Of a stretch of 64,000 nucleotides of DNA, positions 2,500 through 60,080 are shown piece after piece. The stretch is from Candidatus Micrarchaeia archaeon (GTDB lineage: Archaea; Micrarchaeota; Micrarchaeia; Anstonellales; Anstonellaceae): NCBI GenBank assembly GCA_041659465.1, contig JBAZYD010000009.1, forward strand, positions 4,279-68,278. The letters are read 5' to 3'. Under the pieces are notes generated by a model, which saw only the letters and a program-made list of their open reading frames with translations, was not told the DNA's origin and searched no databases. A program made the translations under genes and the position numbers. Numbering within the stretch: position 1 is the stretch's first letter; every line of letters begins with the position of its first letter.

Positions 2500-3114
2500 T
2501 CATCTTTTTGAAAACAGGTGGCGCATCTTCGCCTTTTTCACGTCCAAGTAGCCGGAGTTGTATTTTGTCCTGCCAATCTGGAGCGGGATGCGCCTGGAAA
2601 CCAGTATGTTGTTTGACGCGAGCGCCTCCATCTTGTCAGGGTTGTTCGTGATGAGCGCCACGGATTTTATCCCGAGCGCGCGCACCATTTCCGCGGCGGA
2701 AGTGTAGTCGCGCATGTCGGATGGGAAGCCCAGCGCGTTGTTCGCCTGCACGGTGTCCATCCCCCTATCCTGCAGCGCGTACGCGCGCACCTTGTTGGTG
2801 AGGCCTATGCCCCTGCCTTCCTGGCGCAGGTAAAGGACCGCGCCGCGCGGCATCCTGCTTATTTTCCGAAGCGCGGCATCCAGCTGCGCATGGCAGTCGC
2901 AGCGGAGCGAATGGAAAACGTCGCCCGTGAGGCATTCGGAGTGCATGCGCAAGGGGACGCCCTTCCTGCCCCTCACGTTCCCTTTCACCACCGCGACATG
3001 CTCCTTGCCGTCGGAACTGTTGCGGAATGCTATAAGCCGAAAGTGCCCGTAGCGCGTCGGGAATTTTGCCTCCGCTGCGATTCTTGCCTTCCTTTCCTTT
3101 ATTGCCCCTGCCAT
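2500..3114 (-). CDS. ribA: GTP cyclohydrolase II
   Basis: FPTRYGHFRLIAF..PLRMHSECLTGDVFHSLRCDCHAQL..LYLRQEGRGIGLTNKVRAY.LQD.G.DTV.AN is the GCH II signature. Confidence 0.9.
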   Translation of the reverse strand: MAGAIKERKARIAAEAKFPTRYGHFRLIAFRNSSDGKEHVAVVKGNVRGRKGVPLRMHSECLTGDVFHSLRCDCHAQLDAALRKISRMPRGAVLYLRQEGRGIGLTNKVRAYALQDRGMDTVQANNALGFPSDMRDYTSAAEMVRALGIKSVALITNNPDKMEALASNNILVSRRIPLQIGRTKYNSGYLDVKKAKMRHLFSKR

Positions 3115-3235
3115 CCATGCACCTTATGGAAAGTGTGGGGAGTGACTGGATATAAGCTTTACTACCCGCGCGCACCGGCCGGAAATCCCGCTTGCAAGCA
3201 TACAATCTTAAAATTCCTGCTGCGTAGTTGGTACC

Positions 3236-5632: not shown

Positions 5633-5633
5633 C

Positions 5634-5658
5634 AAAATTTCCAGAGAAATTTTTCAGC
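5634..5658. repeat. 25-nt palindrome-containing repeat (AAAATTTC-CAGA-GAAATTTT)
   Basis: aaaatttccagagaaatttttcagc is identical to 51359-51383. It lies in the short gap between the ABC ATPase gene and the next gene. Confidence 0.7.
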
Positions 5659-5679
5659 AGTGGAGCGGGCTCCACTCCG

Positions 5680-7344
5680 ATGATAAATACGAAGTTTGCT
5701 GTTTTTGCGTTTGCTGCGGCGCTGCTGCTTTGCGGGGCTGCGTTTGCGGACCCGATACTGCAGATTACCAACTACACAACGCTGCCAACGGACGTCTATC
5801 CCGGCACTATCGGCTACCTGCAGATAAAGCTTGCCAACACGGGAGATGCCACTGCGCAGTCTGTCACATCGCACTATGTGATAAACGGGCTGGACAGGAC
5901 GGATTCGCTTGGCGAGATAAGCGCAGGCTCCAACGCCCAGGTGGCGGTGCCTTTCAAGATAAGCCCAAGCTCGGTGGGAAGCATACAGCTTGTCAACATA
6001 GACATATTCTACTCGATGCAATCGACCACCACAGGCAGCTCCAGCTCGAAAAGGACCTCGCTTTCAGTGCCGCTTCTGGTCAAGCAGTTCAAGCCGCTCG
6101 AGGCGAAGGTGGTCGAGATGAAAGGCCTCTCGATTGCCCCTGGCGAGAAGCTGCCGCTCATGCTCACCGTGAAGAACACGGGCGGAGTGGTGAACAACCT
6201 GGTGATAAGCATGCCGGACAATTCCAGCTTTTCCATAGACGGGGGTGCTGAAAAAAGCGTGGGCACGCTTTTGCTCAACGAGTCGGTGAATGTCTCACTC
6301 ACGCTTGCCTCGTCGTCGGACACCAAGACCGGCACTTACCCTGTGGGCGTGGAGTTCACCTACCAGGATGCCCTGAACCAGCCCACATCCGACATCATTT
6401 ATATCGGGCCGGTAAGCGTGCTGGAATCCTCCACGCAGTACAGGCTGACGTTTGTCCCCCTGGATGCGCCTGTCGAGATTGGCTCGCAGGAGCCATTCCT
6501 GCTCACGCTTGAGAATGCAGGCGGCTCGCCAATCTCAGGCGCCATAGACATCAACAGCACCGCCGTGTTCACGCCAATCGGCGCGCAGAGGCTTTACTTC
6601 GAGAATGTGCCGGTAGGCGGCAGCGCGAGCATGAACATCATTATAGGCATTGGCGCCACGCAAAGCGCAGGCTACTACACCCTCCCTGTCAGGCTCACGC
6701 CAAATGCCGGGCAGGCGGTCTCGTACAACATGGGGATAGCGGTGGCGGCCACGCCCGAAGTGACAGTGACTTTGGATTCGTCAGGCGCCGTGCCGTCGGT
6801 GCAGGTGGCAAACACGGGCAACTCGCAGATTCGGAGCGTGTATGCATCTGCAACTCCCGCAGGCTCGCAGACGGCAACCGAGAGCTTCATGGGCACGCTG
6901 AACGTGGATGATTTTGCCACCCTGACGCTAGGCTCAAGCGCAACAGGCAGGAGCGTGGATGTGGAGATACGCTTCAGGGACACTTCCAACCAGGAGCACA
7001 CGATATCAAAGACACTGAGTGCAGTTGCAGGCAATTCGTCCTTCGTGCAGGGCACGAGGGGCCAGGCAGGCGGAGCGGCAGCTGCAGGCAATGCAGGCAA
7101 CTTCGCAAACCGGAACAACAACCCATTGGGCTTCCTGTTCGGGGGAGCAAGCGGCAGGGCGGCATCAAGCGGCCCGGATATGGTGACAATCGTGGTGGTT
7201 GCGGCGGTGCTGCTCGTTGCGGCATACCTTATCTACCGCAGGTTCTTCGCAAAGAAAGGCGCGCCCAAGCAAAGCCCGCTTGAAATATTGGAAAGCCTGA
7301 GGCCGTCATCCGAGGCAGGGAAAAAAAAGGAGGCGCACAAGTAG
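5680..7344 (+). CDS. Secreted cell-surface protein with repeated beta-sandwich (CARDB/S-layer-like) domains and a C-terminal TM anchor
   Basis: Signal-like N-terminus MINTKFAVFAFAAALLLCGAAFA. Repeated motifs such as LTVKNTGG / LTLENAGG / VANTGNS. C-terminal TM VTIVVVAAVLLVAAYLIY. Such proteins commonly sit between the ABC ATPase and permease genes in archaea. Confidence 0.7.
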   Translation: MINTKFAVFAFAAALLLCGAAFADPILQITNYTTLPTDVYPGTIGYLQIKLANTGDATAQSVTSHYVINGLDRTDSLGEISAGSNAQVAVPFKISPSSVGSIQLVNIDIFYSMQSTTTGSSSSKRTSLSVPLLVKQFKPLEAKVVEMKGLSIAPGEKLPLMLTVKNTGGVVNNLVISMPDNSSFSIDGGAEKSVGTLLLNESVNVSLTLASSSDTKTGTYPVGVEFTYQDALNQPTSDIIYIGPVSVLESSTQYRLTFVPLDAPVEIGSQEPFLLTLENAGGSPISGAIDINSTAVFTPIGAQRLYFENVPVGGSASMNIIIGIGATQSAGYYTLPVRLTPNAGQAVSYNMGIAVAATPEVTVTLDSSGAVPSVQVANTGNSQIRSVYASATPAGSQTATESFMGTLNVDDFATLTLGSSATGRSVDVEIRFRDTSNQEHTISKTLSAVAGNSSFVQGTRGQAGGAAAAGNAGNFANRNNNPLGFLFGGASGRAASSGPDMVTIVVVAAVLLVAAYLIYRRFFAKKGAPKQSPLEILESLRPSSEAGKKKEAHK

Positions 7345-47144: not shown

Positions 47145-49046
47145 TCAGACTTTCTTGTAATCCGCGTCGTAGACATTCCCATTCCCGCCTGGGTCGCCTG
47201 AGCCTGCGCCTCCTTGCGGCCCGTAGCCCGTGGGCCCGTCATCGCCTGGCGCGCCTGCGCCGCCCTGTCCGGGGCCGCCCGTTCCCTGACCGCCTGCGCC
47301 CTGCCCCTTGTACATCGAGGCGCCTGCGTCCTGGAGCACTTTCTTGAGCTTGTCAACTGCGAGCTTGAGCGCCGCCATGTCGTTCTTGGGAAGGGTGTCC
47401 TTCACTTCCTTTGCAGCCTCGCGCACCTTGTCGGCAAGGGACTTGTCAAGCTTGTCGCCCAAGTCAGCAAGCGTTTTTTCGCTTGTGTAGACCAGGGACT
47501 CAGCCTCGTTTTTCAGCTCGGCTTCCTCTTTCAGGCGCTTGTCGGTCTCTGCAAATTCATCCGCCTCGCGCATTTTCTTTTCAATCTCGGACTTGTCCAT
47601 CTTGTGGGGAGCCATGATTTGCATTTTCTGCTCCTTGCCAGTGCCCATGTCCTTTGCGGTCACGTGGATGAGGCCGTTGGCGTCGATGTCGAACGACACC
47701 TCTATCTGCGGGATGCCGCGAGGCGCAGGGGGGATGCCCATCAGCTGGAATTTTCCGAGCTCCACATTGTCCCTCGCCATTGCGCGCTCGCCCTGGAGCA
47801 CGTGTATTTCCACCGAGGTCTGCGAGTCGGCGTCCGTTGAGAATATCTGCGACTTCTTGGTGGGGATGGTGGTGTTCCTTTCAACGAGCTTGGTGAAGAC
47901 GTTGCCCCTGGTTTCGATGCCAAGCGAAAGGGGCGTGACGTCAAGCAGCAATATGTCCTTCACGTCGCCGGAGATGACGCCCGCCTGTATGGCTGCGCCC
48001 ATTGCCACGCATTCCATGGGGTCCACGCCGCGCTCCACCTTCTTTCCGAAGATGCCTTCCACGAACCTCTGCACGATTGGCATGCGGGTGGGGCCGCCCA
48101 CCATTATCAATTTGTCAATCTGGGAGGGAGAAAGCTTGGAGTCTGATAATGCGCGCTGCACAGGCACCTTGCACCTGTTCACTATGGGCTCCACTATCTC
48201 CTCAAGCTTTGCCCTCGTGAGCTTGTATGTGAAATGCTTTGGGCCTGTCTTGTCCGCTGAGAGGAAAGGCAGGTTGATGTCGCTTTCAAGCAATGTGGAA
48301 AGCTCTATCTTTGCCTTTTCGCCTGCATCGCGAAGCCGCTGCATTGCCTGCTTGTCAGTTTGGACATCCAGGCCTGTTTCGCGCAGGAACACGCCTGCGA
48401 GATGGTCCACAATTGCGTTGTCCATGTCGGTGCCGCCTAGCGCAGTGTCGCCTGAAGTGCTTTTCACCTCGAAAACGCCCTTGCCGAAGTCCATTATGGT
48501 GACATCAAGCGTGCCGCCGCCCAAATCGAAAACGACTATCTTTTGGTCCTTTCCCGCCTTGTCAAGCCCGTATGCAAGCGCTGCCGCAGTGGGCTCGTTT
48601 ATGATGCGGACGACCTCAAGCCCTGCGATTGCGCCGGCATCCTTTGTCGCCTGGCGCTGGTTGTCGTCAAAGTATGCAGGCACGGTGATTACCGCCTTTT
48701 CCACCTTGTCGCCAAGGAACATTTCAGCGTCCTGCTTTATTTTCTGGAGAAGGAAAGCTGAAAGCTCCTGCGGGCGGTACTCCTTGCCGAATGCCTTGTA
48801 GCGGAAGTCCGTGCCCATCTTGCGCTTGAATGCGGAGAACGTGCCGTCGGTGTTGGCTATTGCCTGCCTGCGCGCAGGTTCGCCAACGAGCTTGAGCCCT
48901 TCCTTTGTGAATGCCACGTAGGAAGGGAATGCCTTGCCGTACTGCGTCGCGCCTTCGGCTGACGGGAGTATGGCTGCCTTGCCGCCTTCCATCACTGCCG
49001 CTGCAGAGTTGCTTGTTCCCAAATCTATTCCGATTATTTTTGCCAT
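47145..49046 (-). CDS. dnaK: Chaperone DnaK (Hsp70)
   Basis: [36 protein letters not shown] before ATG 49046. Confidence 0.96.
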
Positions 49047-49086
49047 TTGTCTCACCTTTTTAGTTTGCCAATATCAATTTGTTTCG

Positions 49087-49422
49087 TCAGTATACGTTGA
49101 GCGTAGAAAGCACCACGCATTCATTCTGCCCGGATTTGCTGCTGAAGCACACCGCTGTGCCTTCATCCCCATCTGCGGTTTTCGCCGAGGATATGCCGCT
49201 TATCTGGTAGCCGGACGAGACAAGGAAATTGCCGAATGCCTCGATTGCCGCAGAGCTTGCAACCGCCTTTTCATTGTAATCCACGCGGAAGTACCCGTCG
49301 CGCTCCGTGACGAACGAGAGCGCGTGCGTGCGCGCGTTCATGTATTCGTTGAAGTGCGGCAGTATATTGTCAGCGACCGCTGTCTGGTCGGCAACAAGGT
49401 GCACAATTGCGTATCCGTTCAT
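49087..49422 (-). CDS. Hypothetical 111-aa protein between grpE and dnaK
   Basis: Its ATG overlaps the grpE stop (ATGA). No recognised family. Confidence 0.55.
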   Translation of the reverse strand: MNGYAIVHLVADQTAVADNILPHFNEYMNARTHALSFVTERDGYFRVDYNEKAVASSAAIEAFGNFLVSSGYQISGISSAKTADGDEGTAVCFSSKSGQNECVVLSTLNVY

Positions 49423-50048
49423 GCTCCCACCTCTTTCTCATCGGTTTTTTTCACTGGTTCGCCTTTCTTCCCGGATGAAACTGAAACCATCGCGTGCTGC
49501 AGAACTTCACCCCTGAAAAAGTACCCCTGCCTTATCACGCGCACAATCGCGCCTTCCGGCGCGCTTGAGTCCTCGCGCAGCGCGACCTCGTGCCTGAAAG
49601 GGTCGTACTTTTCGCCTTCAAGCTTCATTGGCTGCAGGCCCTCGTTCTCGAATGACGCGCGGAGCTTGGCAAGCACCATCAGGGTGCCTGCGCGCGCCTG
49701 CCCTTCGGGCAGCTTGCCGACTTCCTTTTCCGCGAAGCCAATTTCCTCGTAGATGGGAAGCAGGCGCAGCATCACCTTTGCCTCAGAATGGAGGCAGAGC
49801 GCCTCCTTTTCCTTTGCAGTCCTTTTCTTGTAATTGTCAAACTCGGCGGTCAGGCGCAGCAGCCGATCAGTTAGCTCGGAGAATTCCGCCTCGAGCGCAT
49901 CCTGCGCCTGCTCGGGCGCGGACGGCCCAGTTGCCGCCTCTTCAATGGGCAGCTTCTTATCCGCCTCCACGCGCTTTTGCGTTGCGTCGGCCTTCGCCCC
50001 GGCAGGTTTTGCAGCCGGCTCGGTGTTGGGGTTGCTGTTTTTTTCCAT
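49419..50048 (-). CDS. grpE: Nucleotide exchange factor GrpE
   Basis: ..LTDRLLRLTAEFDNYKKRTAKE.., ..G..P....GE.YDP..HEV is GrpE. Start trimmed to ATG 50048. Confidence 0.88.
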   Translation of the reverse strand: MEKNSNPNTEPAAKPAGAKADATQKRVEADKKLPIEEAATGPSAPEQAQDALEAEFSELTDRLLRLTAEFDNYKKRTAKEKEALCLHSEAKVMLRLLPIYEEIGFAEKEVGKLPEGQARAGTLMVLAKLRASFENEGLQPMKLEGEKYDPFRHEVALREDSSAPEGAIVRVIRQGYFFRGEVLQHAMVSVSSGKKGEPVKKTDEKEVGA

Positions 50049-50059
50049 AAGAACCACGA

Positions 50060-50500
50060 TTAGGGCAGCCTTCTGCGGCGCTTGAACTGCTCGTCGAACT
50101 CGCGCTCCATCTGCGCAAACTGCTCGTCGAATTCGCGCGCCATCTCGTCCATTTCCGCAAAATTCCGCTCCATTTCCTTGCGGAACTCCAGTATCATGTC
50201 CTCGGCGGAGCGCACGCGCAGTATGTACTTGCCTTCCTCGCGCCTCACAAAGCCTGCGCCCTCGAGGCGCTTCATGTGATGTATTATAGTGATGCGGTTT
50301 ATGCCGGAAAGCTCGGACAGCTCCGAGCCGCCGACCGGCTGGCCGCGCGAGTGCACCATCATGACGCGCAGCACCTGGGGCAGCGTGGCGTCGGTGTCGC
50401 GCTCGCTCATCAGGCGCATCTTCCTGCAAAGCTCGACAAGCTCCCCTTCCTGGCCGGCTTCCTTCTTCGCCGTCATCAATTCTGTTTTTGGTTTGGGCAT
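50060..50500 (-). CDS. Winged-helix regulator heading the grpE-dnaK operon (putative heat-shock regulator)
   Basis: ..GGSELSELSGINRITIIHHMKRLEGAGFVRRE is wHTH. The C-terminal acidic helix carries the tandem AREFDEQFAQ/EREFDEQFKR. Confidence 0.7.
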   Translation of the reverse strand: MPKPKTELMTAKKEAGQEGELVELCRKMRLMSERDTDATLPQVLRVMMVHSRGQPVGGSELSELSGINRITIIHHMKRLEGAGFVRREEGKYILRVRSAEDMILEFRKEMERNFAEMDEMAREFDEQFAQMEREFDEQFKRRRRLP

Positions 50501-50545
50501 TTTTGCTCACCGTCTCAACTGTTAACTTGTTATGAACAAAGGTTA

Positions 50546-50569
50546 ATAAATGTTAATATGATGTTAACA
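50546..50569 (-). promoter_or_regulatory. Candidate heat-shock operator/promoter element (copy at the wHTH-grpE-dnaK operon)
   Basis: Plus strand ataaatgttaatatgatgttaaca. It lies 46-69 nt upstream of ATG 50500. Extra GTTAAC/GTTAAT copies occur at 50521-50547. Confidence 0.6.
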
Positions 50570-50644
50570 CTGTCAAGCATATGTTGACACAGGCACGCAA
50601 GCGCGGCTAAGCTATGGCAAACCAGCAGAGAGCTGGTTTGCTAG

Positions 50645-50733
50645 ATAGCAGTCGATGTGCATTTTGCTGATGCAAAATGCATCAGACATTTTCGCTACGG
50701 CGAAAATGCCGAGCATCTCTGCGAGACTGCTAT
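50645..50733. repeat. Multi-hairpin structured element, same family as the tRNA-Arg-linked units
   Basis: ATAGCAGTC-GATG-[TGCATTTTGC/tgat/GCAAAATGCA]-TCAGAC-[ATTTTCGC/tacg/GCGAAAAT]-..-AGA.. closing with GACTGCTAT. Preceded by a perfect 10-bp hairpin at 50617-50641. Confidence 0.75.
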
Positions 50734-50757
50734 ATGTATAAAAAGGGGAGGGCTGAA

Positions 50758-51336
50758 ATGCCAAACATGCGCGGAAATATTGCCCTTATAGCATTAGTCT
50801 CGCTTGCGCTGCTGTTCGGCTGCACCGGAAGCAGCGTGCCGCAGGAAAAGTACGACGAGCTTGCAGCCTCGTGCAGCAAGGCGAAGGCGGACGATGCGTC
50901 ATTGCTTGCATCGGAGATTGCAAAGACCAGCGCGGCAAATGCGAAGGTTTCCTCCTGCACTGCGGAAAAGCAGTCGCTTGAGTCGCTCCTGGCCGTGAGG
51001 GAGCAGGAGAACGGTGCGCTGCGCGCAGAGGAGGCGGTGCTTGCAAAAGCAAGGGCGAAGATGGACCTTGCCGTGCAGTACAACGCGACAATAGGCTATT
51101 ACATGGAGGCATTCGGGCCGGGAAGATTGCCCAACACCGCGCGGCTCAAGAAGATAGACACGCAGGTGGATTCGCTCAATGACAGCGCGCTCCGGCCGCT
51201 TTGGCTCGGAGTGAAGGGCTGCCAGGGGATTACCGGCTGCGACACTGCGAAGGCAAAGTTCCTTGCGTATATCGACGGCAGGATGGCGGCGCTTCGGCTC
51301 GAGGCGGCCGCCATTGTGGGGACAACCCCGGGCTAG
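50758..51336 (+). CDS. Putative lipoprotein (coiled-coil rich)
   Basis: GGAGG RBS. N-terminus MPNMRGNIALIALVSLALLFGCTGS is lipobox-like. Confidence 0.65.
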   Translation: MPNMRGNIALIALVSLALLFGCTGSSVPQEKYDELAASCSKAKADDASLLASEIAKTSAANAKVSSCTAEKQSLESLLAVREQENGALRAEEAVLAKARAKMDLAVQYNATIGYYMEAFGPGRLPNTARLKKIDTQVDSLNDSALRPLWLGVKGCQGITGCDTAKAKFLAYIDGRMAALRLEAAAIVGTTPG

Positions 51337-51356
51337 CAAAGGCACGGGCAGGCAAT

Positions 51357-51505
51357 GAAAAATTTCCAGAGAAATTTTTCAGCTATTGGAAATTGCGCAA
51401 GCAATTTACAATACAAGGACAAATTTCCAGAGAAATTTGTCCGCATATGGAAATCCGATAGGATTTACATATACAAAAAAAAGCCCGCGCGCAACACGCG
51501 GGCTT
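51357..51505. repeat. Array of five tandem hairpins/palindromes upstream of lon
   Basis: Five hairpins. 51357-51380 GAAAAATTTC-caga-GAAATTTTTC. 51390-51407 AAATTGC-gcaa-GCAATTT. 51417-51442 GGACAAATTTC-caga-GAAATTTGTCC. 51451-51466 AAATCC-gata-GGATTT. 51481-51505 AAGCCCGCG-cgcaaca-CGCGGGCTT. Confidence 0.8.
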
Positions 51506-51511
51506 GCAACG

Positions 51512-53560
51512 ATGGTGAACAACATGCGCAAATTCACAACCACCGAGGAAATCCCTATCCCTGCAAAGCTCATAGACCAGGTGCTGGGGCAGGACGAGGC
51601 GGTCAAGCTTGTCAAGAAGGCTGCAGTGCAGAAAAGGAACGTGCTCATGATAGGCACGCCAGGCACGGGGAAATCCATGCTTGCGCAGGCAATGGCCGAG
51701 CTCATGCCGGCCACCTCGCTTGAGGATATCCTGGTTTACCCGAACCCTAATGACGAGAACCGCCCCATCGTGAAGGCAGTGAAGACATACCCGAGCGAGG
51801 ACGAGATAAAGAAGGACCCCGGGCTTTTCCAGATGTATAGCTCGTTCCGCCAGATGAGGCGGGCGTTCGCGCAACTGTCAGGTGCAGCCGCCAAGTCAAC
51901 CAAGAAGGAAAGGGAGGAGGAGGAACTTGGGCAGGGCAGGATGCTCCAGCAGGCAATGAAGAACCGCGACAATGCCGCGCAGGCAAGGGGAGGCAATGGC
52001 GGGATGATGTTCCTTTTCATCATGATTGCCGCGATAATATTTTTCTATGCCACAGGCGCGCTGAACAACGACAACAAGTGGTTCGTGCTTGCGGTGCTTG
52101 TGGCGATAGGCATGATGTACCTGCTTTACCGCTTCACCAATACGTTCGGCAGGCGCATGGGGGTGGGCATGTTCGACTACAACGACCCCAAGCTCATCGT
52201 GGACAATTCCGGGAAGAAGAACGCGCCGTTCGTGGACGCCACCGGCACAAGGGCAGGGGCGCTTTTGGGCGACGTGAAGCACGACCCGCTGCAATCCGGC
52301 GGGATGGGCACGCCAGCGCACCTGCGCGTGGAGAGCGGCGCGGTGCACCGCGCGAACAAGGGGGTGCTTTTCATAGACGAGGTCGCATCGCTCAAGATTC
52401 GGAGCCAGCAGGAGCTCCTCACCGCGATGCAGGAGAAGAAGTATTCCATCACCGGCCAGAGCGAGAACTCGTCCGGGGCGATTGTGAAGACAGAGCCCGT
52501 GCCATGCGACTTTGTCCTGGTGGCGGCAGGCAATTACATGGACATGCAGGGGATGCACCCGGCGCTGCGCTCGAGGATTCGGGGCAACGGCTATGAGGTT
52601 TACGTCCAGGACAGCATGCCCGACACGCCCGAGAACGAGGACAGGTATGTCCAGTTCGTGGCGCAGGAAGTGAGGAAGGACGGGAAAATCCCGCACTTCA
52701 CCCATGCTGCTGTCCAGGAGATAGTGGACGAGGCGCGGAGGAAGGCAGGGAGGAAGAAAAGGCTTTCCTTGAACCTGCGCGAGCTTGGCGGCCTTGTGAG
52801 GGCGGCAGGCGACATTGCCAACGAGGAAAAGGCTGTGCTAGTGGACGAGAAGCACGTGATGACAGCGCGCGGGCTTGCCCAGACAATAGAGCAGCAAGTG
52901 AGCAGACGCTTCGTGGAAAGCAGGAAGGATTACCCTGTGTTCGGCACCGAAGGCTCAAGCGTGGGCAAGGTGAACGGCCTGGCAGTGCTTGGCGATTCCA
53001 TGGCAGGCCTTATCATGCCCATTGTGGCTGAAGTCACGCCTGCGTCCTCGAAAGCAGAGGGCAAGCTGATTGCAACTGGGAAGCTTGGCAAGATTGCAAA
53101 GGAGGCCGTGGAGAACGTCTCGGCGATAATCAAGAAGCATATCGGCAAGGACGTTTCGCAATACGACATGCACGTGCAGTTCCTGCAGACCTACGAAGGC
53201 GTGGAGGGGGACTCTGCTTCCATTTCCATTGCGGTTGCCATCATTTCCGCAATGGAAGGCGTGCCTGTGAGGCAGGACATTGCGATGACAGGCTCCCTTT
53301 CAGTGCGCGGCGAGGTGCTGCCAGTGGGCGGCGTGACAGGGAAAACCGAGGCTGCAATCGAGGCAGGCCTTAAGGCGGTCGTGGTGCCGCGCAGCAACGA
53401 GGACGACATATACCTTTCCAGGGGCCTGCGCGGGAAGATAAAGATAGTGCCCGTTGACAACTTCGTGGACGTGCTCCAGTACGCGCTTGTGGATTCGCAG
53501 AAAAAGCGCGCGCTCATACGGAAGATGGCGGGCATACTGCACTTCAAGAAAAAGCGATAG
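51512..53560 (+). CDS. lon: Archaeal membrane-bound Lon protease (LonB)
   Basis: Walker [11 protein letters not shown] insertion ([30 protein letters not shown]) within the AAA+ module, C-terminal protease domain (..[15 protein letters not shown]..). Confidence 0.92.
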
Positions 53561-53587
53561 GGCAAAAGGAAAAGATAGGCCCGGGAA

Positions 53588-54172
53588 TCAGCGCGCAAGC
53601 GCGATGAAAAGCGTGGTTTCCTCGCCCGTCTCCTTGCCCTTGGATTTGCTTTTTAGCGGAAGCTCGGCGGAAATGACCTCCATTGATTTTCCATGCTTTT
53701 CCTCGAGGCTTGCCATGTCATTCTTTACGACGATGTCAAGCATGGCCTTGGTTTGGCAGACCCACAGGTAAGCGTCAGGGTCTTTGATGGACTTGAACTG
53801 CGCGGACGTGGCGCTTATCTTCTCGTGCTGGCCTGAGAGGCTGCGCACTATCCTTCTCACGCCCATGCGATATGAAACGTTTTGGTCCGCGCATAGCATG
53901 GACAGGTAGAGGGCATCGCCCTTGACAAAGCCGCGCATCGGCGCGCTTGCTGCCCTTGAGAGCCCGCTTGCGTAAAAATTCTCGAAATTGGCGCGCAGGG
54001 CGAACAGGACATTTTTCCTGATGAGAAGGAGCCTTGATGCTGGCTGTGCCAGCTCGCTGGACGGTAGCAGGTCCGCGCGCGCAAGCGCGGCAGGCGACGT
54101 ATCCGCTATCAGCTGCTTGGCAGGGGGCGCAGCATCCCTTTTGAATGGGTTAAGGAACAGCTCTTTTGACAT
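53588..54172 (-). CDS. Hypothetical protein
   Basis: 194-aa ORF. No family recognised. Confidence 0.5.
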   Translation of the reverse strand: MSKELFLNPFKRDAAPPAKQLIADTSPAALARADLLPSSELAQPASRLLLIRKNVLFALRANFENFYASGLSRAASAPMRGFVKGDALYLSMLCADQNVSYRMGVRRIVRSLSGQHEKISATSAQFKSIKDPDAYLWVCQTKAMLDIVVKNDMASLEEKHGKSMEVISAELPLKSKSKGKETGEETTLFIALAR

Positions 54173-54247
54173 GATGATTGATTGATTACCATTAATTTAA
54201 TAAGCCATCGATGCATTAAATGGAATGCAGAGCAGACAGGTGATCGC

Positions 54248-54802
54248 ATGAAACTAGGCTTGGAAAAGAACCGAGTCAGCACTATAACTGGCAGCGGATG
54301 CCTTGTTTTTTCAAAGCTGCGCAAGGCGTTTTGCAGCTTTAGGGTGAAAAGGGAAGAGATTGCGGGCAGCGCCGCGCTTGCAGATACCCACAGGAAAAAG
54401 GCAAGGGAGCTTGAAAAGGGCGCAGATGGCTGCAGCGACCAGAAATGGGCTCTTGCCGCGGCTGCCCGTTGCGACGAGGCAGGTGAGTGCAACAGGCTGG
54501 CAGGGGAACTTCGGAACATTGGCAACGAGGAAGCCGCCATTGGGATGGAGGAAAGGGCGGCATGCGCAATTGCCCGCGCGGCAGCCATGACAATGAATAT
54601 GGGAAGATATGATGAGGCGCTGGCGCTCTTCCAGAAGGCAGAGGCGCAGCTGGGCAGCGTAGTGAAGGGATATATCCAGGCGGGCAACGCAGAAAAAGCG
54701 AAGATGGCGGGCAGTGTGCTGGTGCATGTGCAGAACATAATCCGGGACTACAATGGGACATTCCTGCTGATGGTTGATTTGCCCGCGACTTTCCCCTTCT
54801 AG
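54248..54802 (+). CDS. Hypothetical protein
   Basis: GGTGAT RBS then ATG 54248. Ala/Cys-containing helical repeats. Confidence 0.5.
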   Translation: MKLGLEKNRVSTITGSGCLVFSKLRKAFCSFRVKREEIAGSAALADTHRKKARELEKGADGCSDQKWALAAAARCDEAGECNRLAGELRNIGNEEAAIGMEERAACAIARAAAMTMNMGRYDEALALFQKAEAQLGSVVKGYIQAGNAEKAKMAGSVLVHVQNIIRDYNGTFLLMVDLPATFPF

Positions 54803-54936
54803 CGCGCGCACCATAACAATATGCACCCCAGCCGTGCGCACTACAAGTTGTAGTACGCCCCAACAGTACCCCTTTTTTTGTTCAATTTGAGGGAGATGGA
54901 GATAAATATATAAAACGCCATAAGCAATAATCTCGT

Positions 54937-55494
54937 ATGAGAAACTGTAAATTTGCTTGTTTTGTATTCATAGTTCTGATGCTTCAGTTAAGCGCGAATA
55001 TGACCGACAACAGGACGTTAAACAGCGGTGAAGGTGTTTGGGAAGGCAGCTGGGGCCGATTGTGGAATGGCCCAGAATGCAACGAGTCATTTTACTACAA
55101 ATATGCGGAAGTGAACGTTAGTTTCTGCGAATCGATTCCTGACAACTGCCCTATTAACTACGGGGTAGGAAACACGATTTTTGGAAGGAGAGACTGGTGT
55201 TTTATGACTGTTGCAGAAAAAGAAGGAAATCAGTCATTATGCGCTAAAATTGTTGATAACGGCACAAAATACGGTTCTGTTTTTGGCACTAGAGGCGGGC
55301 CCGCCTATATACAGGGATGCTACGGAGACATAGCAATATCAAAAAATGACAGTGCACTTTGTGATAATATCTCAGTTGAAACTCTCAGGGAAAGATGTAA
55401 GGCTGCGATTGCTCTGAATACGGCTACGATTACTGCTTGCGGAATGCCTGTCCTAATGCTGCTGCTTATTATCGGGATTGCGCTTGTTAGATGA
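54937..55494 (+). CDS. Secreted Cys-rich protein with C-terminal TM anchor, in an A+T-rich patch
   Basis: Signal-like N-terminus, 13 Cys after the signal region, several N-x-S/T sequons, C-terminal PVLMLLLIIGIALV. Confidence 0.6.
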   Translation: MRNCKFACFVFIVLMLQLSANMTDNRTLNSGEGVWEGSWGRLWNGPECNESFYYKYAEVNVSFCESIPDNCPINYGVGNTIFGRRDWCFMTVAEKEGNQSLCAKIVDNGTKYGSVFGTRGGPAYIQGCYGDIAISKNDSALCDNISVETLRERCKAAIALNTATITACGMPVLMLLLIIGIALVR

Positions 55495-55534
55495 AAAAAA
55501 TCGGTTTGGTCGGGGAGTTATACTGCTTGCAGCA

Positions 55535-55630
55535 CGCCCCAGCCGATGTGCATTTTGCACGAGCAAAATGCATCAGACATCGAGCGAAGCTCGATGCTGA
55601 TCGACGCCGAAAGGCGGCGAGACTGGGGCG
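55535..55630. repeat. Structured unit A (closing helix CGCCCCAG/CTGGGGCG around three hairpins)
   Basis: See the finding at 55535-55841. All stems verified by eye as perfect complements. Confidence 0.8.
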
Positions 55631-55645
55631 CGAAGTGAAACGGAG

Positions 55646-55706
55646 CGCCCCAGCCGATGAACGCGGAGCGTTCAGATTTTGGCGCGCAGCGCCAAAAGGC
55701 TGGGCG
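55646..55706. repeat. Structured unit B (closing helix CGCCC(C)AGCC/GGCTGGGCG around two hairpins)
   Basis: AACGC-gga-GCGTT and TTTTGGCGC-gca-GCGCCAAAA. Confidence 0.8.
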
Positions 55707-55723
55707 TCGAACTGAAAGTGAGA

Positions 55724-55768
55724 CGCCCCAGCCGATGGAGCAGACGCAGTCTGCGACAGACTGGGGCG
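55724..55768. repeat. Structured unit C (closing helix CGCCCCAG/CTGGGGCG around one hairpin)
   Basis: GCAGAC-gca-GTCTGC. Confidence 0.8.
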
Positions 55769-55780
55769 TCGAGCAGCAGC

Positions 55781-55841
55781 GATGTGCATTTTGCAAGAGC
55801 AAAATGCATCAGACATTTTCGCAAAGCGAAAATGCTGAAGA
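55781..55841. repeat. Structured unit D (two-hairpin module abutting the tRNA 3' end)
   Basis: GATG-[TGCATTTTGC/aaga/GCAAAATGCA]-TCAGAC-[ATTTTCGC/aaa/GCGAAAAT]-GCTGAAGA. Near-identical to 50654-50709. Confidence 0.8.
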
Positions 55842-55913
55842 CGCCCCAGCCGAGATTCGAACTCGGATCAAAGGCTTCGGAGGCCCTCATTCTATCCATT
55901 GAACTACCGGGGC
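55842..55913 (-). tRNA. tRNA-Arg (anticodon CCG), no encoded CCA
   Basis: Manual cloverleaf. Acceptor GCCCCGG/CTGGGGC, D arm GTTC-AATGGATA-GAAT, anticodon arm AGGGC-CTCCGAA-GCCTT, T arm CCGAG-TTCGAAT-CTCGG, discriminator G. 72 nt. Confidence 0.9.
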
Positions 55914-55954
55914 GCAGTTGAATTGGTGATTTTGTTTAACAGAATAAGTTTTAA

Positions 55955-56036
55955 GGGGGGAGGTCAGGAGCAACCCTCGAACCAGGAGGGGGCGGAGCCC
56001 CCTCGGGGTTTTGGGATTGAACTACCGGGGCGCAGT
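55955..56036 (-). pseudogene. Degenerate tRNA-Arg-like copy / duplicated 5' fragment
   Basis: The 21-mer attgaactaccggggcgcagt (56016-56036) duplicates 55898-55918 (leader plus tRNA positions 1-16). It is followed by an anticodon-arm-like GAGGGGG-CTCCG-CCCCCTC and GGTTCGAGGG, but there is no 3' acceptor strand. Confidence 0.45.
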
Positions 56037-56100
56037 CTGATTGTATTTCGGTGAATGCAACTTTTATTAATGGTGCGCGCGAATTATGCGCGGTGGGATC

Positions 56101-56310
56101 ATGGCAAAGGAAGAAAAGGACGGAATCAGGCGCGTTTACCGCTCGAAGAAGAACAAGATGCTCGCGGGCGTTTGCGGCGGCATTGCGGAATATTTTGAAA
56201 TCGACCCTGTGCTTGTACGCCTGCTGTTCGTGCTGTTCACGCTCATGGGCTTTGCGGGGATAATACTCTATCTTGTGGCGTGGCTCATAATGCCGGAGAA
56301 CCCGAACTGA
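56101..56310 (+). CDS. PspC-domain membrane protein
   Basis: ..LYRSKKNKMLAGVCGGIAEYFEIDPVLVRLLFVL.. Confidence 0.8.
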   Translation: MAKEEKDGIRRVYRSKKNKMLAGVCGGIAEYFEIDPVLVRLLFVLFTLMGFAGIILYLVAWLIMPENPN

Positions 56311-56315
56311 AAAAA

Positions 56316-57323
56316 CTACCCGCCCACGATGTTCTGCGGCCTGCCCGAGAGGAAGCCCTCAATGTTATCCGCAGTGGTGGCAAGGATGCGCTGCAGCGCC
56401 TCGCTTGAGTTGAAGGCGTTGTGCGGCGTGATTATCACGTTCGCATGGTTGAGCAGTATGTGGTCTGCAAGCACGGTGCGCAGGTTGCACTCGCCTGCAA
56501 AGTCAGGCGCAAGGAGCTGGCGCTCCTCCTTGATGCCGCATTCCTCCTCAAGCGCGTCAAGCCCTGCGCCGGATATTTTGCCTGAGTCAAGCGCTTCTAT
56601 GAGGGCGCGCGCATCCACAAGGCCTCCGCGCGCGGTGTTTATTAGGATGGCTCCTGTTTTCATCTTCGCCATTGACTCCTTGTTTATCATGTGGAAATTG
56701 CCCTTGTTGAGCGGGCAGTGCAGGCTCACTATGTCCGACTGCTGCAGAAGCTCGTCAATGCCGACCAGGCGGACGCCCTGCGCGGTTGCAGCATCGATAT
56801 CGGTGTGCGGGGAAAAAGCGATGACTTTCATGTTGAACGAGCGCGCCATTTTTGCAAAGTGAGAGCCTATCCTGCCCAAGCCCACTATGCCCACTGTCTT
56901 GCCCTCCAAGTCAAAGGTGCGCAAGCCTGCAAGGGTGAAGTCTCCGCGCCTTGTCTTTTCCATGCACTGCGGGATTTTTTTTGCAAGGGAGAGCATGAGC
57001 GCCATTGTGTGCTCCGCCACTGTTTCAGAGCCGTACTCTGGCACGTTGCATGCTGCGACGCCCTTTGCCTTGCAGTCGGCAACCTTCACATGGTCAAAGC
57101 CGGTGGAGCGCGTGGCTACAAGCTTCACACTGGGAAGCGCCGCAAGCTCTTGCGCGCCCACTTTCGAGTAGATGAAAACGGAAAGGACGTCCGCGCCGGA
57201 CGCCTTTGCAAGCTTTTCCTGCGAAAGCGCGCCATCGATGAAAACAAGCTCGTGCCCTTTCAGCCGTTTCGTGAAATACTCCTGTTCCCACTTCTCAAGC
57301 TCGAAGAATGCGAGTTTTGCCAT
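56316..57323 (-). CDS. D-isomer-specific 2-hydroxyacid dehydrogenase (D-lactate/glycerate dehydrogenase-like)
   Basis: NAD-binding VGIVGLGRIGSHFAKM, catalytic-region R..G..VD and H (ITPHNAF). Confidence 0.85.
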   Translation of the reverse strand: MAKLAFFELEKWEQEYFTKRLKGHELVFIDGALSQEKLAKASGADVLSVFIYSKVGAQELAALPSVKLVATRSTGFDHVKVADCKAKGVAACNVPEYGSETVAEHTMALMLSLAKKIPQCMEKTRRGDFTLAGLRTFDLEGKTVGIVGLGRIGSHFAKMARSFNMKVIAFSPHTDIDAATAQGVRLVGIDELLQQSDIVSLHCPLNKGNFHMINKESMAKMKTGAILINTARGGLVDARALIEALDSGKISGAGLDALEEECGIKEERQLLAPDFAGECNLRTVLADHILLNHANVIITPHNAFNSSEALQRILATTADNIEGFLSGRPQNIVGG

Positions 57324-58200: not shown

Positions 58201-58824
58201 ATGGAATCAGTTGCAGAAGTGAAAAGGGCGGGCATGAAGACTTCGAGCCTGTTCGGGCGGGTCCACGGTTTGGGCTCTTTTTATTTCAGGTTAATGGGAG
58301 AGAAGGCCATTCAGGCTCAATTCCAGGATAGGCAATTCCAGCTGAGCGAATCCAAACTTGAGAAATACGCAGAAAAGGCGAGAAACACTGCCATCTTGCT
58401 TGCGCAACAGGTCAAGAAGGCGGTCGCAGGGAACATGCACCTGATGGCTGAATATGATGACGGCATGTCGCTGGATTTTAAGGTAAATATCGTTGGTAAA
58501 GGCGTCGGCAAAGGCAAGGACGGGAGTTCGATTTGGTGCGGGGTGTGTGGCCCTGATTTTTTTCAGAAATTCCGCATGTGGGGATATTATGAAGCATTCA
58601 AGAATGGGAATTTGGATGCGGATTTTTCAATCGCAAAACTCTCCCATAGGAAAAAAATGACTGTGGGCTCGATTACCGTAGACTTGGGGTTCGGCTTGGC
58701 AACAGTGGTTTTCCCGAATGGCACGAAAAAGAAATACAGATTTGAGGATATATCCGAAGCCAGAAATGACTTCTGCAGGGCAGTGAAGGCGTTCGTGCCT
58801 GAAACCGCCAAGGCAAAAGCCTAA
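58201..58824 (+). CDS. Hypothetical protein (paralogue pair, member 2)
   Basis: 207 aa. GGTGG RBS. Confidence 0.55.
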   Translation: MESVAEVKRAGMKTSSLFGRVHGLGSFYFRLMGEKAIQAQFQDRQFQLSESKLEKYAEKARNTAILLAQQVKKAVAGNMHLMAEYDDGMSLDFKVNIVGKGVGKGKDGSSIWCGVCGPDFFQKFRMWGYYEAFKNGNLDADFSIAKLSHRKKMTVGSITVDLGFGLATVVFPNGTKKKYRFEDISEARNDFCRAVKAFVPETAKAKA

Positions 58825-60080
58825 ATCTCCATCGAGTCGCCAAGCGCAGGCGCGGTTGCGTCAAAGCCTTCCAGCGCAAGCTCGTCAGCGAACTTCTGGC
58901 AGCTGTCGCCGTGTATGCAGTACACCTTTTTCGGCTTGAGGGACTCCACCAGCCCGAAAAGCTCGGTGCGCCCTGCGTGCGCTGAGAAGTCAAGGTAGCT
59001 CCATGGGGCTTTCGGCTTGATTTTCACGCCGTCGTATTCCACATAGCCCTTGTTGATGAGGTTGTGCCCGTTGGTGTCCTCCACGCAGTAGCCTGTGAAG
59101 ATTGCGCGCGATTCGGGAGTCATTTTCAAGAGGTAGCCCAAAGCAGGCCCGCCCTGAAGCATGCCAGCGGTCGCGATTATCACGCCCGGGCGCTTGAGAA
59201 CTTTCCCGCGCTCGCTCGGGTGGCGGATGGGCTTGCAGGTGTCATAGTCCATCTTGAAGCGCTTGAAGTCCTTCACGTAATGCGAGTGGTGCGAGAGCGT
59301 CTCGGAGACGCGCGCGCCCATGCCGTCCAGCCAGATGTCGCAGTCGCGGTCGAACGAGCGCACTATCCTGATGAGCTCCTGCGTCCTGCCTATCGCGAAT
59401 GCGGGAAGCAGCACCGTGCCGCCCTGCCCCAAAGTCTCCTCGACAAGCGCCTTCATCTTTGCCTCAAGCTCCTTCCTTGGGGGGTGGTCGCGGTCAGCGT
59501 ATGTGCTTTCAATGATGAGGGCGTCTGGGTTGGGGGGAGGCGGCTCGGATGCGAATGTCGTTTTGGTCTCCTCGCCCTTGAAGTCGCCGGTGTACACCAC
59601 GCGCTTGCCGCCGGTCTCTATTTCCACGAACGACGCGCCTGGGATGTGGCCTGCCTGGTGGAGAGTCACGGACGAGTCGCCGATTTCATACCATTTCTTG
59701 TAAGAGAGAAGGGTGGTGTTCTGGTGGAGCTGCTTTATCTGCGCAGGGCGGTAGGGGAACTCGCCGCGCTTTTCCATCAGGCGCATGGAATCGTCGATTA
59801 TTATCTCCGCCATCGCCGCGGTAGCAGGCGTGCATATCATCTCTGGGGCGTGGTGGCGGTAAAGAGCGGGCGTGAAGCCGGAATGGTCCAGGTGCGCGTG
59901 CGAGAGCACCACATAATCGGGCTGCGCGGGCGGCTCGATAGGATAGGGCGTGTCGGTGTGTATCTTGAGCCCGCAGTCCAGCATTATCTCGTCCTCGCCG
60001 GAAAGCAGTATGCAGCTCCTGCCCACTTCGCCCGCGGCGCCCAAAAAGGTAATCTTGTTTTTTCCAGACATTTCCATCAT
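58821..60080 (-). CDS. Beta-CASP metallo-beta-lactamase RNase (aCPSF2/RNase J-like, no KH domains)
   Basis: VLSHAHLDHSG (HxHxDH), ..HQAGHIPGA.., ..ESTYADRDH.., ..IHGD. Confidence 0.85.
   Translation of the reverse strand: MMEMSGKNKITFLGAAGEVGRSCILLSGEDEIMLDCGLKIHTDTPYPIEPPAQPDYVVLSHAHLDHSGFTPALYRHHAPEMICTPATAAMAEIIIDDSMRLMEKRGEFPYRPAQIKQLHQNTTLLSYKKWYEIGDSSVTLHQAGHIPGASFVEIETGGKRVVYTGDFKGEETKTTFASEPPPPNPDALIIESTYADRDHPPRKELEAKMKALVEETLGQGGTVLLPAFAIGRTQELIRIVRSFDRDCDIWLDGMGARVSETLSHHSHYVKDFKRFKMDYDTCKPIRHPSERGKVLKRPGVIIATAGMLQGGPALGYLLKMTPESRAIFTGYCVEDTNGHNLINKGYVEYDGVKIKPKAPWSYLDFSAHAGRTELFGLVESLKPKKVYCIHGDSCQKFADELALEGFDATAPALGDSMEI

Follow-up and report, generated by a model that had tools for sequence, protein, structure and literature searches.

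Palindromic hairpin cassettes and a two-hairpin module at a tRNA-Arg(CCG) gene of Micrarchaeota: probable mobile repetitive DNA

Known palindromic elements and the array at tRNA-Arg(CCG)

Insertion sequences of the IS200/IS605 type have a characteristic signature: they make no target duplication and have no inverted ends, a hairpin lies inside each end, insertion takes place 3' of a short motif, and a dinucleotide is shared. The REP, BIME and REPIN palindromes associated with RAYT are short and extragenic, occur in tens of copies per genome, and keep their stems while their loops vary freely; integron attC sites and the attP site of CTX phage are imperfect palindromes in which structure takes precedence over sequence and which are arrayed at a single fixed position in the chromosome; archaeal integrative elements and casposons at tRNA genes are marked by a direct repeat of the 3' (or 5') segment of a tRNA and preserve an intact tRNA. 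These traits recur in a 64,000-nt stretch of Candidatus Micrarchaeia archaeon DNA (the window; GenBank assembly GCA_041659465.1, contig JBAZYD010000009.1), in which 307 nt abutting a tRNA-Arg(CCG) gene consist of nested palindromic units. The original prediction, which recognized four such units (A to D) and a fifth (E) 5 kb away, left a choice between a structured small RNA, DNA palindromes resembling REP or miniature inverted-repeat transposable elements (MITEs), and scars of integration at a tRNA attachment (att) site. Filled and empty sites, more than 100 intergenic copies, and presence or absence between relatives support the second of these; the region is probably mobile repetitive palindromic DNA and not a gene, with an approximately 55-nt module that would be read as a folded single strand.

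The coordinates and sequences of units A to E (the letters are kept here; L-numbers denote compared loci or contigs of other genomes) all check out, but the four units of the tandem are not alike: A, B and C are cassettes, whereas D is a module inserted in the spacer between C and the tRNA. With its modules removed, the array reads t-core-t'-spacer three times and then runs into the tRNA. The segment t is a direct copy of the last 12-18 nt of the tRNA (the 3' strands of T-stem and acceptor stem, the discriminator and 1-3 more bases), t' is its inverted complement, beginning 4 nt from the t/core junction, and the spacer is a purine-rich 12-17 nt. At tRNA-Arg(CCG), for which no CCA is encoded, the t that is copied in the cassettes is the last 12-13 nt (both 3' strands and the discriminator). 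The reverse complement of this end, CGCCCCAGCCG, occurs exactly at 55535, 55646, 55724 and 55842, the four occurrences that had been claimed.

The cassettes differ in what lies between these arms. Cassette A carries t (CGCCCCAGCCGA, 55535-55546), the module, TCGA, a CGCCG/CGGCG hairpin (55605-55619), AGA and t' (CTGGGGCG, 55623-55630); B carries t, TG, an AACGC/GCGTT hairpin, CAGA, a TTTTGGCGC/GCGCCAAAA hairpin and t' (GGCTGGGCG); C carries t, the core TGGA-GCAGAC/GTCTGC-GACAGA with paired GA-NN-GA junctions, and t', again CTGGGGCG. The module occurs three times in the window: within A (TG, hairpin 1 at 55549-55572, TCAGAC, hairpin 2 at 55579-55595, GCTGA), as D (the same parts, with hairpin 1 at 55785-55808 and hairpin 2 at 55815-55833), and within E. 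Unit E is situated between divergent genes and consists of a closing helix, ATAGCAGTC/GACTGCTAT, enclosing module copy 3 and a 12-nt tail. Its kinship with the other units, as proposed, is upheld by a covariance-model match (Table 1) and by the module inside it; in its orthologue in the metagenome-assembled genome (MAG) DeMMO2_7 (L036), the stems are retained and the loops are altered.

Comparison with related loci separates the pieces. A relative, LacPavin_0419_WC90_MAG_54_17, is 77-94% identical to the window by BLAST, and its orthologous tRNA-Arg locus (L088) has module copy 2, which is absent at the same position in L133. The insertion content at tRNA-Arg is A-B-C-D in the window, C'-D in L088, A-B'-C without D in L133, a single minimal cassette (B minus its second hairpin) in L183, and a C holding a module in L210; in both L210 and L174 the module is inserted into cassette C at CCGA^TGGA. 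The spacer that module copy 2 breaks, GAGCAGCAGCGA, stands uninterrupted ahead of tRNA-Val in L170 and L194. Modules that land in cassettes, in spacers and, in the case of E, in a hairpin that has no relation to a tRNA thus explain the "nest" made up of A, D, the module-bearing C, and E.

A scan of the 64 kb for GATG, a perfect hairpin and CAGA returns the five units alone, each on the + strand, with no match on the - strand; the 24-nt hairpin-1 palindrome TGCATTTTGC-N4-GCAAAATGCA occurs 3 times in the window against 0.02 expected. The structure as drawn is recovered for every unit, whether it is folded as RNA or as DNA and whichever strand is taken (z of -3.6 to -8.8 per unit, with 0/200 shuffles as good), which answers the folding check that had been proposed, and the 341-nt region as a whole folds with z = -12.3. 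The global fold favours another register, t'(i)-spacer-t(i+1), so that the unit boundaries as first drawn, although each unit does fold within them, are not unique. Since the alternative register folds better, the array is best seen as alternating inverted tRNA-end copies joined by two kinds of linker, in the manner of BIME-2, where unit and inverted copy likewise alternate and a host function is possible.

A two-hairpin module and its empty sites

The module (54-57 nt) has the form TG-(TGCATTTTGC/GCAAAATGCA)-TCAGAC-(AT..AT)-GCTGA. A pattern scan of one genome per species shows that 12 or more Candidatus Micrarchaeota MAGs contain the hairpin-1 palindrome, which in them is always part of an extended consensus, (G/C)ATG, hairpin 1, TCAGAC, AT-stem-loop-stem-AT and GCTGA; this consensus has Micrarchaeota matches only, among the matches listed. 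A covariance model (R1) built from module copies, the search for further copies that the original prediction had called for, identifies at least 60 full copies in 53 loci; a second scan, anchored on hairpin 2 with hairpin 1 left free, adds 89 further distinct copies from metagenomes. The total is well over 100 copies in at least 12 Micrarchaeota MAGs and metagenomes, with at least 8-18 copies per MAG, and a scan of 2.9 million viral contigs gave 0 matches.

The stems of these copies covary and their loops vary freely. In hairpin 2 (40 copies), double changes affect 8 of the 11 pairs, the hairpin is 98.4% paired, and 0/500 shuffles match the observed covariation. In hairpin 1, where it was unconstrained by the search, 748 of 770 pairs are Watson-Crick and 46 of 77 copies have the exact consensus stems, the variants being mostly compensated (TGCATTTTCC/GGAAAATGCA, TGCTTTTTGC/GCAAAAAGCA and TGCAAATTGC/GCAATTTGCA). 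The stem covariation first noticed in the window is therefore real at the level of family alignments, but the differences among A to D that had suggested it are mostly different inserted hairpins. Free variation of the loops, also part of that first description, is borne out: hairpin-1 loops are 3-8 nt long and near random, with 64 different loops in 92 exact-stem copies, the 10-bp stem being invariant in these. The hairpin-2 loop is mostly GAA (of the stable C-GAA-G type), which is also the favoured insertion target.

Mobility of the module was examined by deleting the element TG...G(C/T)(C/T)GA from 95 distinct copies, joining the flanks, and looking for an intact match by BLAST. For about 25 of the 95, the joined flanks exist as uninterrupted sequence elsewhere, many with 100% identity across the junction over 24-28 nt. 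One unoccupied site lies in the window itself (Table 1); it is filled by a module at the corresponding point in four contigs of MAG SO_2016_LW1_44. The last base of the left flank is A in 93 of the 95 copies (GA 59, CA 19, AA 10, TA 5). The module ends (TG... and ...CTGA) are not inverted repeats, and there is no duplication beyond a 1-2-nt A/GA ambiguity of the boundary. Hairpin 1 begins 2 nt from the left end and hairpin 2 stops 5 nt from the right end, and insertion typically occurs in a purine-rich spacer or in the GAA or GAT loop of another hairpin. At L086, comparison of a module with the orthologous site shows homology stopping at the stop codon. The intact empty sites, insertion after A, and the want of inverted ends and of real duplication argue that the module is mobile in IS200/IS605 or REP style.

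The resemblance to IS200/IS605 elements and to their miniature derivatives (PATEs) is close in several respects: neither terminal inverted repeats nor target duplication, subterminal hairpins on both sides, insertion directly 3' of a short specific sequence, GA shared by left flank and right end, strand asymmetry, and a family that is common in the host phylum, IS200/IS605 elements being present in more than 65% of Micrarchaeota genomes according to a 2026 survey (PMC13343696). Unlike them, the module measures only 54-65 nt, no cognate TnpA was found for it, and the Y1 element that was recovered differs in its ends and in its target. The REP/RAYT system differs in that the host is an archaeon, the GTAG/CGTC tag is replaced by flanks of (G/C)ATG and TCAGAC or GCTGA, the mobile unit is two-hairpin with precise sites, and the alternating arms copy the neighbouring tRNA end instead of a family consensus. 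The module appears to be a REP/PATE-type element; the family was not found described in the literature on Micrarchaeota or DPANN repeats, MITEs and tRNA-linked hairpins, and is apparently new.

A Y1 transposase is encoded on a module-bearing contig, L216 (Pfam Y1_Tnp, E = 8e-29), and has 103 homologues, several of them named as Micrarchaeota; in L046 a truncated TnpA lies 39 nt from a module and is the sole Y1/RAYT-like gene seen adjoining one. The contig L216 yields an IS200-like insertion sequence of Micrarchaeota (2694-3170; also L222-L242), with a 158-aa Y1 transposase, that inserts after T-rich sequence. In its left end, a closing helix encloses two hairpins, the mini-hairpin GCGAAGC and GCCGCC-ttca-GGCGGC, and its right-end hairpin is followed by ATTTAT; its copies are mostly on contigs shorter than 2 kb, and it breaks assemblies.

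Two further observations concern the reach of the hairpins. The same 10-bp palindrome is found, without the archaeal flanks, in unrelated bacterial repeats (L009, L011, L012, L052, L067, L091, L104), in one case as a 75-nt tandem unit of a Ruminiclostridium MAG, and in Pseudanabaena loci (e.g., L007 and L016) it sits in a repeat flanked by GTT...AAC, again without the archaeal flanks. In L037 (7282-7525), the intron mode of ARAGORN predicts a tRNA-His with a 160-nt intron enclosing a module; if the intron is genuine, tRNA introns can harbour modules without harm.

Cassettes at tRNA ends and the surrounding locus

The cassette architecture, 50-110 nt long, is common to different tRNAs and genomes. 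Among the 27 tRNAs in fetched loci, 8 are followed downstream by a direct repeat that copies 9 nt or more of the tRNA's own 3' end, and 7 of these 8 also have the inverted copy; repeats of 10-18 nt occur at tRNA-Arg(CCG), tRNA-Arg(TCT), tRNA-Thr, tRNA-Val and others. The same grammar governs tRNA-Thr (L020, with the architecture of cassette B), tRNA-Val(GAC), with up to four cassettes, and others, while at tRNA-Arg(TCT) (L090, L026) the repeat flanks a module and spacer without an inverted copy. Six related contigs have differing sets of cassettes at the same tRNA-Arg, and cassette number varies from 1 to 4 among close relatives. Array periods are 53-128 nt and comprise hairpins only; no open reading frame (ORF) lies inside the arrays, the wider flanks not having been screened for integrase genes. 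No naive hairpin of the form t-NNGA-t' was seen among the tRNA loci examined. These tRNA-end cassettes are an unusual variant of tRNA-linked repeats.

What is constant and what is local in a cassette can be read from one comparison. The core GATGGA-GCAAACC..GGTTTGC-GACAGA and the spacers GAGCAGCAGCGA and TTGAGCGAAGCGARA are present at both tRNA-Arg(CCG) and tRNA-Val(GAC), each time with the arms of the local tRNA; on this showing core and spacer would travel between tRNA loci and the arms would not. The junctions covary (GATGGA/GACAGA seven times, GAAGGA/GACTGA twice, GATCGA/GAGAGA once) in such a way that the + strand keeps G.A, A.G, two Watson-Crick pairs, G.A and A.G, an arrangement that is strand-asymmetric. 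The closing helix had been likened to an acceptor helix, but it is actually the pairing of an inverted copy of T-stem and acceptor 3' strand. At tRNA-Val it pairs CCCACG with CGTGGG and spans the T-stem; at tRNA-Thr, t' differs from the 5' strand of the tRNA at -1 and +6, towards perfect complementarity, and the tRNA-Arg cassettes likewise differ. An origin of the closing helix from a pseudo-tRNA or acceptor stem was rejected on these grounds.

The layout recalls integron attC and CTX attP sites, in that the attachment-site duplex reappears in the closing helix and the order t-core-t'-spacer-t is what insertion of a folded circle would be expected to leave. In contrast to attC, the cassettes are without R and L boxes (RYYYAAC/GTTRRRY), without cargo genes and without a link to IntI or Xer (IntI was not sought beyond the loci), and their closing helices copy the tRNA end (CGCCCCAG/CTGGGGCG is an example), with arms that vary by tRNA, so that the resemblance is one of layout only. 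Archaeal integrative elements and casposons differ in another direction: here the insert is gene-less and 40-110 nt long, it brings an extra, inverted copy of the site, and the cassettes are stacked. One locus, L174 (reverse complement, about 190-330), has the L210 cassette, then a tRNA-end copy (CGCCCCAGCCGAG) and then unrelated sequence in place of the tRNA body; the tRNA there has presumably been lost, rearranged or misassembled.

The 5' side of tRNA-Arg(CCG) has been affected as well. The repeats of the tRNA 5' end listed in Table 1 enclose an insert of about 98 nt immediately ahead of the intact tRNA, in which an A/T-rich stretch accompanies a GGGGGC-gga-GCCCCC hairpin; the insert is missing beside the tRNA-Arg 5' end in L088. 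This is an event of the cassette kind on the other side of the tRNA. The GGGGGC/GCCCCC hairpin resembles a G/C-rich repeat family in L037, L058, L029 and L152.

Table 1. Positions of the array components, the tRNA gene and related features in the window
Feature	Position	Strand	Basis
Cassette A	55535-55630	+	Fold; orthologous cassette in L133
Module copy 1, at site CCGA^TCGA of cassette A	55547-55600	+	R1 covariance model, 78 bits; empty/filled logic
Purine-rich spacer CGAAGTGAAACGGAG between cassettes A and B	55631-55645	+	Sequence; related spacers at other tRNAs
Cassette B	55646-55706	+	Sequence and folding
Spacer TCGAACTGAAAGTGAGA between cassettes B and C	55707-55723	+	Sequence
Cassette C	55724-55768	+	Sequence, fold, comparison
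Spacer TCGAGCAGCAGCGA^AGA, split by module copy 2	55769-55841	+	Same spacer uninterrupted elsewhere
Module copy 2 (unit D of the original prediction)	55783-55838	+	R1, 74 bits
Unit E, not beside a tRNA (module copy 3 = 50656-50712)	50645-50733	+	R1, 69 bits
Unoccupied module site atatggaaatccga^taggatttacatat (ggaaatccga^taggatttac)	51445-51472	+	28/28 nt identity spanning the junction
tRNA-Arg(CCG)	55842-55913	-	ARAGORN; Rfam tRNA, 63 bits; sequence
Direct repeat of tRNA-Arg 5' end, 20-28 nt	55898-55925 and 56016-56043 (span 55898-56043)	-	Sequence comparison

The neighbouring genes are archaeal in kind: a LonB-type protease, GrpE (the ORF at 49419-50510 has a GrpE domain) and a beta-CASP/RMMBL nuclease of aCPSF-like type (58821-60080). 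The 636-aa ORF at 47145-49055, beside the GrpE ORF, may be DnaK, and the Cys-rich 185-aa ORF at 54937-55494 has no Pfam match. Related hairpins that were not among the units first listed occur at 51353-51475 and 5633-5680; the members of this family are TGAAAAATTTC-caga-GAAATTTTTCA, GGACAAATTTC-caga-GAAATTTGTCC and GGAAATCC-gat-AGGATTT. A composite of these hairpins stands directly upstream of the likely LonB start (about 51513) and ends in an A-rich, TATA-like run; it is also present ahead of genes in other MAGs (L003, L028, L109, L112), possibly as a repeated promoter or operator cassette.

Mechanism, alternatives and meaning

In the course of events proposed here, the mobile form of the module would be a single DNA strand in its folded state, and the enzyme acting on it would be of HUH/Y1 type (IS200/IS605 or RAYT-like), recognizing both subterminal hairpins and cleaving after GA at each end; the single-strand mechanism is carried over from IS200/IS605 to the module on the strength of its sequence. 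Recombination or fold-back copying, with the tRNA end as the site, would add cassettes at the tRNA 3' end or remove them, and modules would then land inside the cassettes to yield the nest. Conservation and covariation of the stems would reflect what is required for recognition of a folded strand, and the asymmetric, GA-rich junctions would mark the strand that is read. For the cassettes themselves, the candidate chemistries are recombination of a folded single strand (as for attC and CTX), fold-back copying, and tandem amplification with compensation. The random loops beside invariant stems hint at selection on each copy or at a process that remakes hairpins. A bolder proposal is that the cassettes constitute a site-specific array-building system of DPANN archaea, which would add hairpin cassettes at tRNA 3' ends with arms re-templated on the local tRNA, through fold-back copying or folded single-strand recombination; it would explain both the Watson-Crick-only stems and the randomized loops, and is put forward tentatively, as a rather unlikely account.

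Several facts sit uneasily with movement as a folded strand by a Y1-type enzyme. The intact Y1 elements differ from the module in having a multi-hairpin left end, a right end of ...ATTTAT and a T-rich target (TTT); in the 21 TnpA loci that were fetched, no modules flank Y1 elements and no partner enzyme was found; and no excised circle or transposition intermediate was seen. The number of different loops in exact-stem copies implies that most copies are old and yet have perfect stems, which speaks for selection on each copy (a host-level function) or for some other process, and against recent copy-and-paste. As a measure of strand bias with respect to replication (lagging-strand template), GC skew on the strand of the module averages +0.02 (59 versus 44 loci), a weak signal. 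GA-rich junctions are equally typical of RNA motifs. A locus-specific t' between a conserved core and a conserved spacer fits no known transposition chemistry.

The last point but one leads to the question of RNA or DNA. Structured RNAs normally tolerate G.U pairs far more than A.C. In the two module helices, at positions not fixed by the search, the 1209 pairs are 1175 Watson-Crick, 7 G.U, 14 A.C and 13 other mismatches; G.U thus makes up 0.6% of pairs and is rarer than A.C, and the lack of a G.U excess argues against a structured RNA on the + strand. Such an RNA would have a closing helix, tandem G.A junctions resembling a kink-turn (k-turn) and binding L7Ae, together with a 5' arm that is antisense to the 3' end of the tRNA. 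The strong folds speak for it, as do junctions that are purine-rich on the + strand only and covary so as to keep their G.A/A.G pattern, and so does the box C/D-like motif (G.A/A.G/U.U/G-C) that the 5' GAUG and 3' CUGA of a module of about 55-60 nt could form, with tandem sheared G.A pairs from GAUG...CUGA or CAGA. However, the minus strand folds as well as the plus strand. In a 40-sequence alignment, CATG replaces GATG in many copies, and CAUG breaks the G.A pair that a k-turn needs; the bulge is CC, 2 nt where a k-turn has 3, or the loop is symmetric. These features count against the k-turn proposed at the junction, conserved and covarying though the tandem GA junctions are. Rfam, applied to the whole window at the gathering threshold and to 50400-56400 at E up to 10, recognizes the tRNA alone, the best other match overlapping the units scoring 18.8 bits against a gathering score of 73.5. 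All module copies are intergenic and show no orientation preference with respect to protein genes (flanking genes same/same 13, same/opposite 9, opposite/opposite 9, opposite/same 8), no promoter-like conserved sequence stands out upstream in a by-eye look at copies, and the elements insert and go missing like DNA transposons. The asymmetry of the junctions does indicate that one strand matters, which fits a folded single strand of DNA as well as RNA. A structured RNA gene, the first option of the original prediction, is not supported; RNA function is disfavoured, and a new + strand small RNA is the least probable of the explanations considered. Particular RNA classes were looked at and rejected: box C/D RNA, in view of the CAUG variants, of the 2-nt bulge and of a module consensus (nnGCGAUGUGCA...GCUGA) that is without RUGAUGA and without C'/D' boxes and has self-paired hairpins in the "guide" positions; a hammerhead-like CUGAUG on the minus strand, which on inspection is without GAAA after stem II; and a bulge-helix-bulge intron at the module borders, for which, again on inspection, a 4-bp central helix cannot be drawn.

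The opposite, tRNA-coding strand offers a different role, in which the units belong to the tRNA 3' trailer, their hairpins, with a 3' arm that repeats the tRNA end, act as terminator, processing signal or stabilizer of the tRNA transcript, and the elements are kept as useful, like bacterial REP. Of the modules adjoining a tRNA, 8 of 9 are convergent with it and abut its 3' end (further cases are known), a T-rich run after the outermost tRNA-end copy is usual (T8 in L183, T7 in L090, T5 in L133), stems that are kept with random loops, and retained in an orthologous copy, suggest selection per copy, and the + strand A.C mismatches that outnumber G.U would be G.U on this strand. The convergence is also explained if modules land in cassettes and spacers that are themselves oriented, the mismatch ratio does not reach significance, and most copies lie away from tRNAs in all gene orientations, even between divergent genes as unit E does; on this strand, moreover, the conserved junctions become pyrimidine mismatches of no known motif, and the number of cassettes is not stable between close relatives. 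Host function on the tRNA strand is accordingly judged improbable. Integrase scars are more doubtful still: this reading supposes that larger elements entered at the T-loop border and decayed to attL/attR remnants. The direct repeats, 10-18 nt long, run from the border of T-stem and T-loop to a point 1-3 nt beyond the discriminator and have just the geometry of a tRNA att site (this much of the third option stands), L170 has one extra cassette, tRNA-proximal, relative to L221 and L153, and the 5' side offers a matching 20-nt repeat with its 98-nt insert. The supposed remnants are, however, a conserved 50-110-nt architecture shared across tRNAs and genomes, not the product of random decay; each carries an inverted copy of the site, which is foreign to att scars; the arrays contain neither ORF nor integrase (the flanks beyond them being unscreened); and the viral contigs have no match.

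With the module regarded as mobile palindromic DNA, some consequences follow. In practice, these elements break assemblies and create spurious ORFs, and in the annotation of DPANN genomes they can be mistaken for small-RNA genes or tRNA pseudogenes. Micrarchaeota genomes are small and streamlined, and dozens of structured mini-repeats per genome were not to be expected in them. If an HUH/Y1 enzyme moves the module, the natural substrate of that enzyme is very compact, comprising two hairpins within about 55 nt and cut sites after GA, and would be useful for the study of single-strand transposition in archaea. The occurrence of one core and spacer at different tRNAs with rewritten arms is not described for REP, MITE or att sites, and suggests a so far unrecognized step of copying or recombination. 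If the array-building account were true, it would amount, in layout, to structured DNA units without genes that are stacked much as in integrons or CRISPR, and the module would be among the smallest autonomous-looking insertion units.

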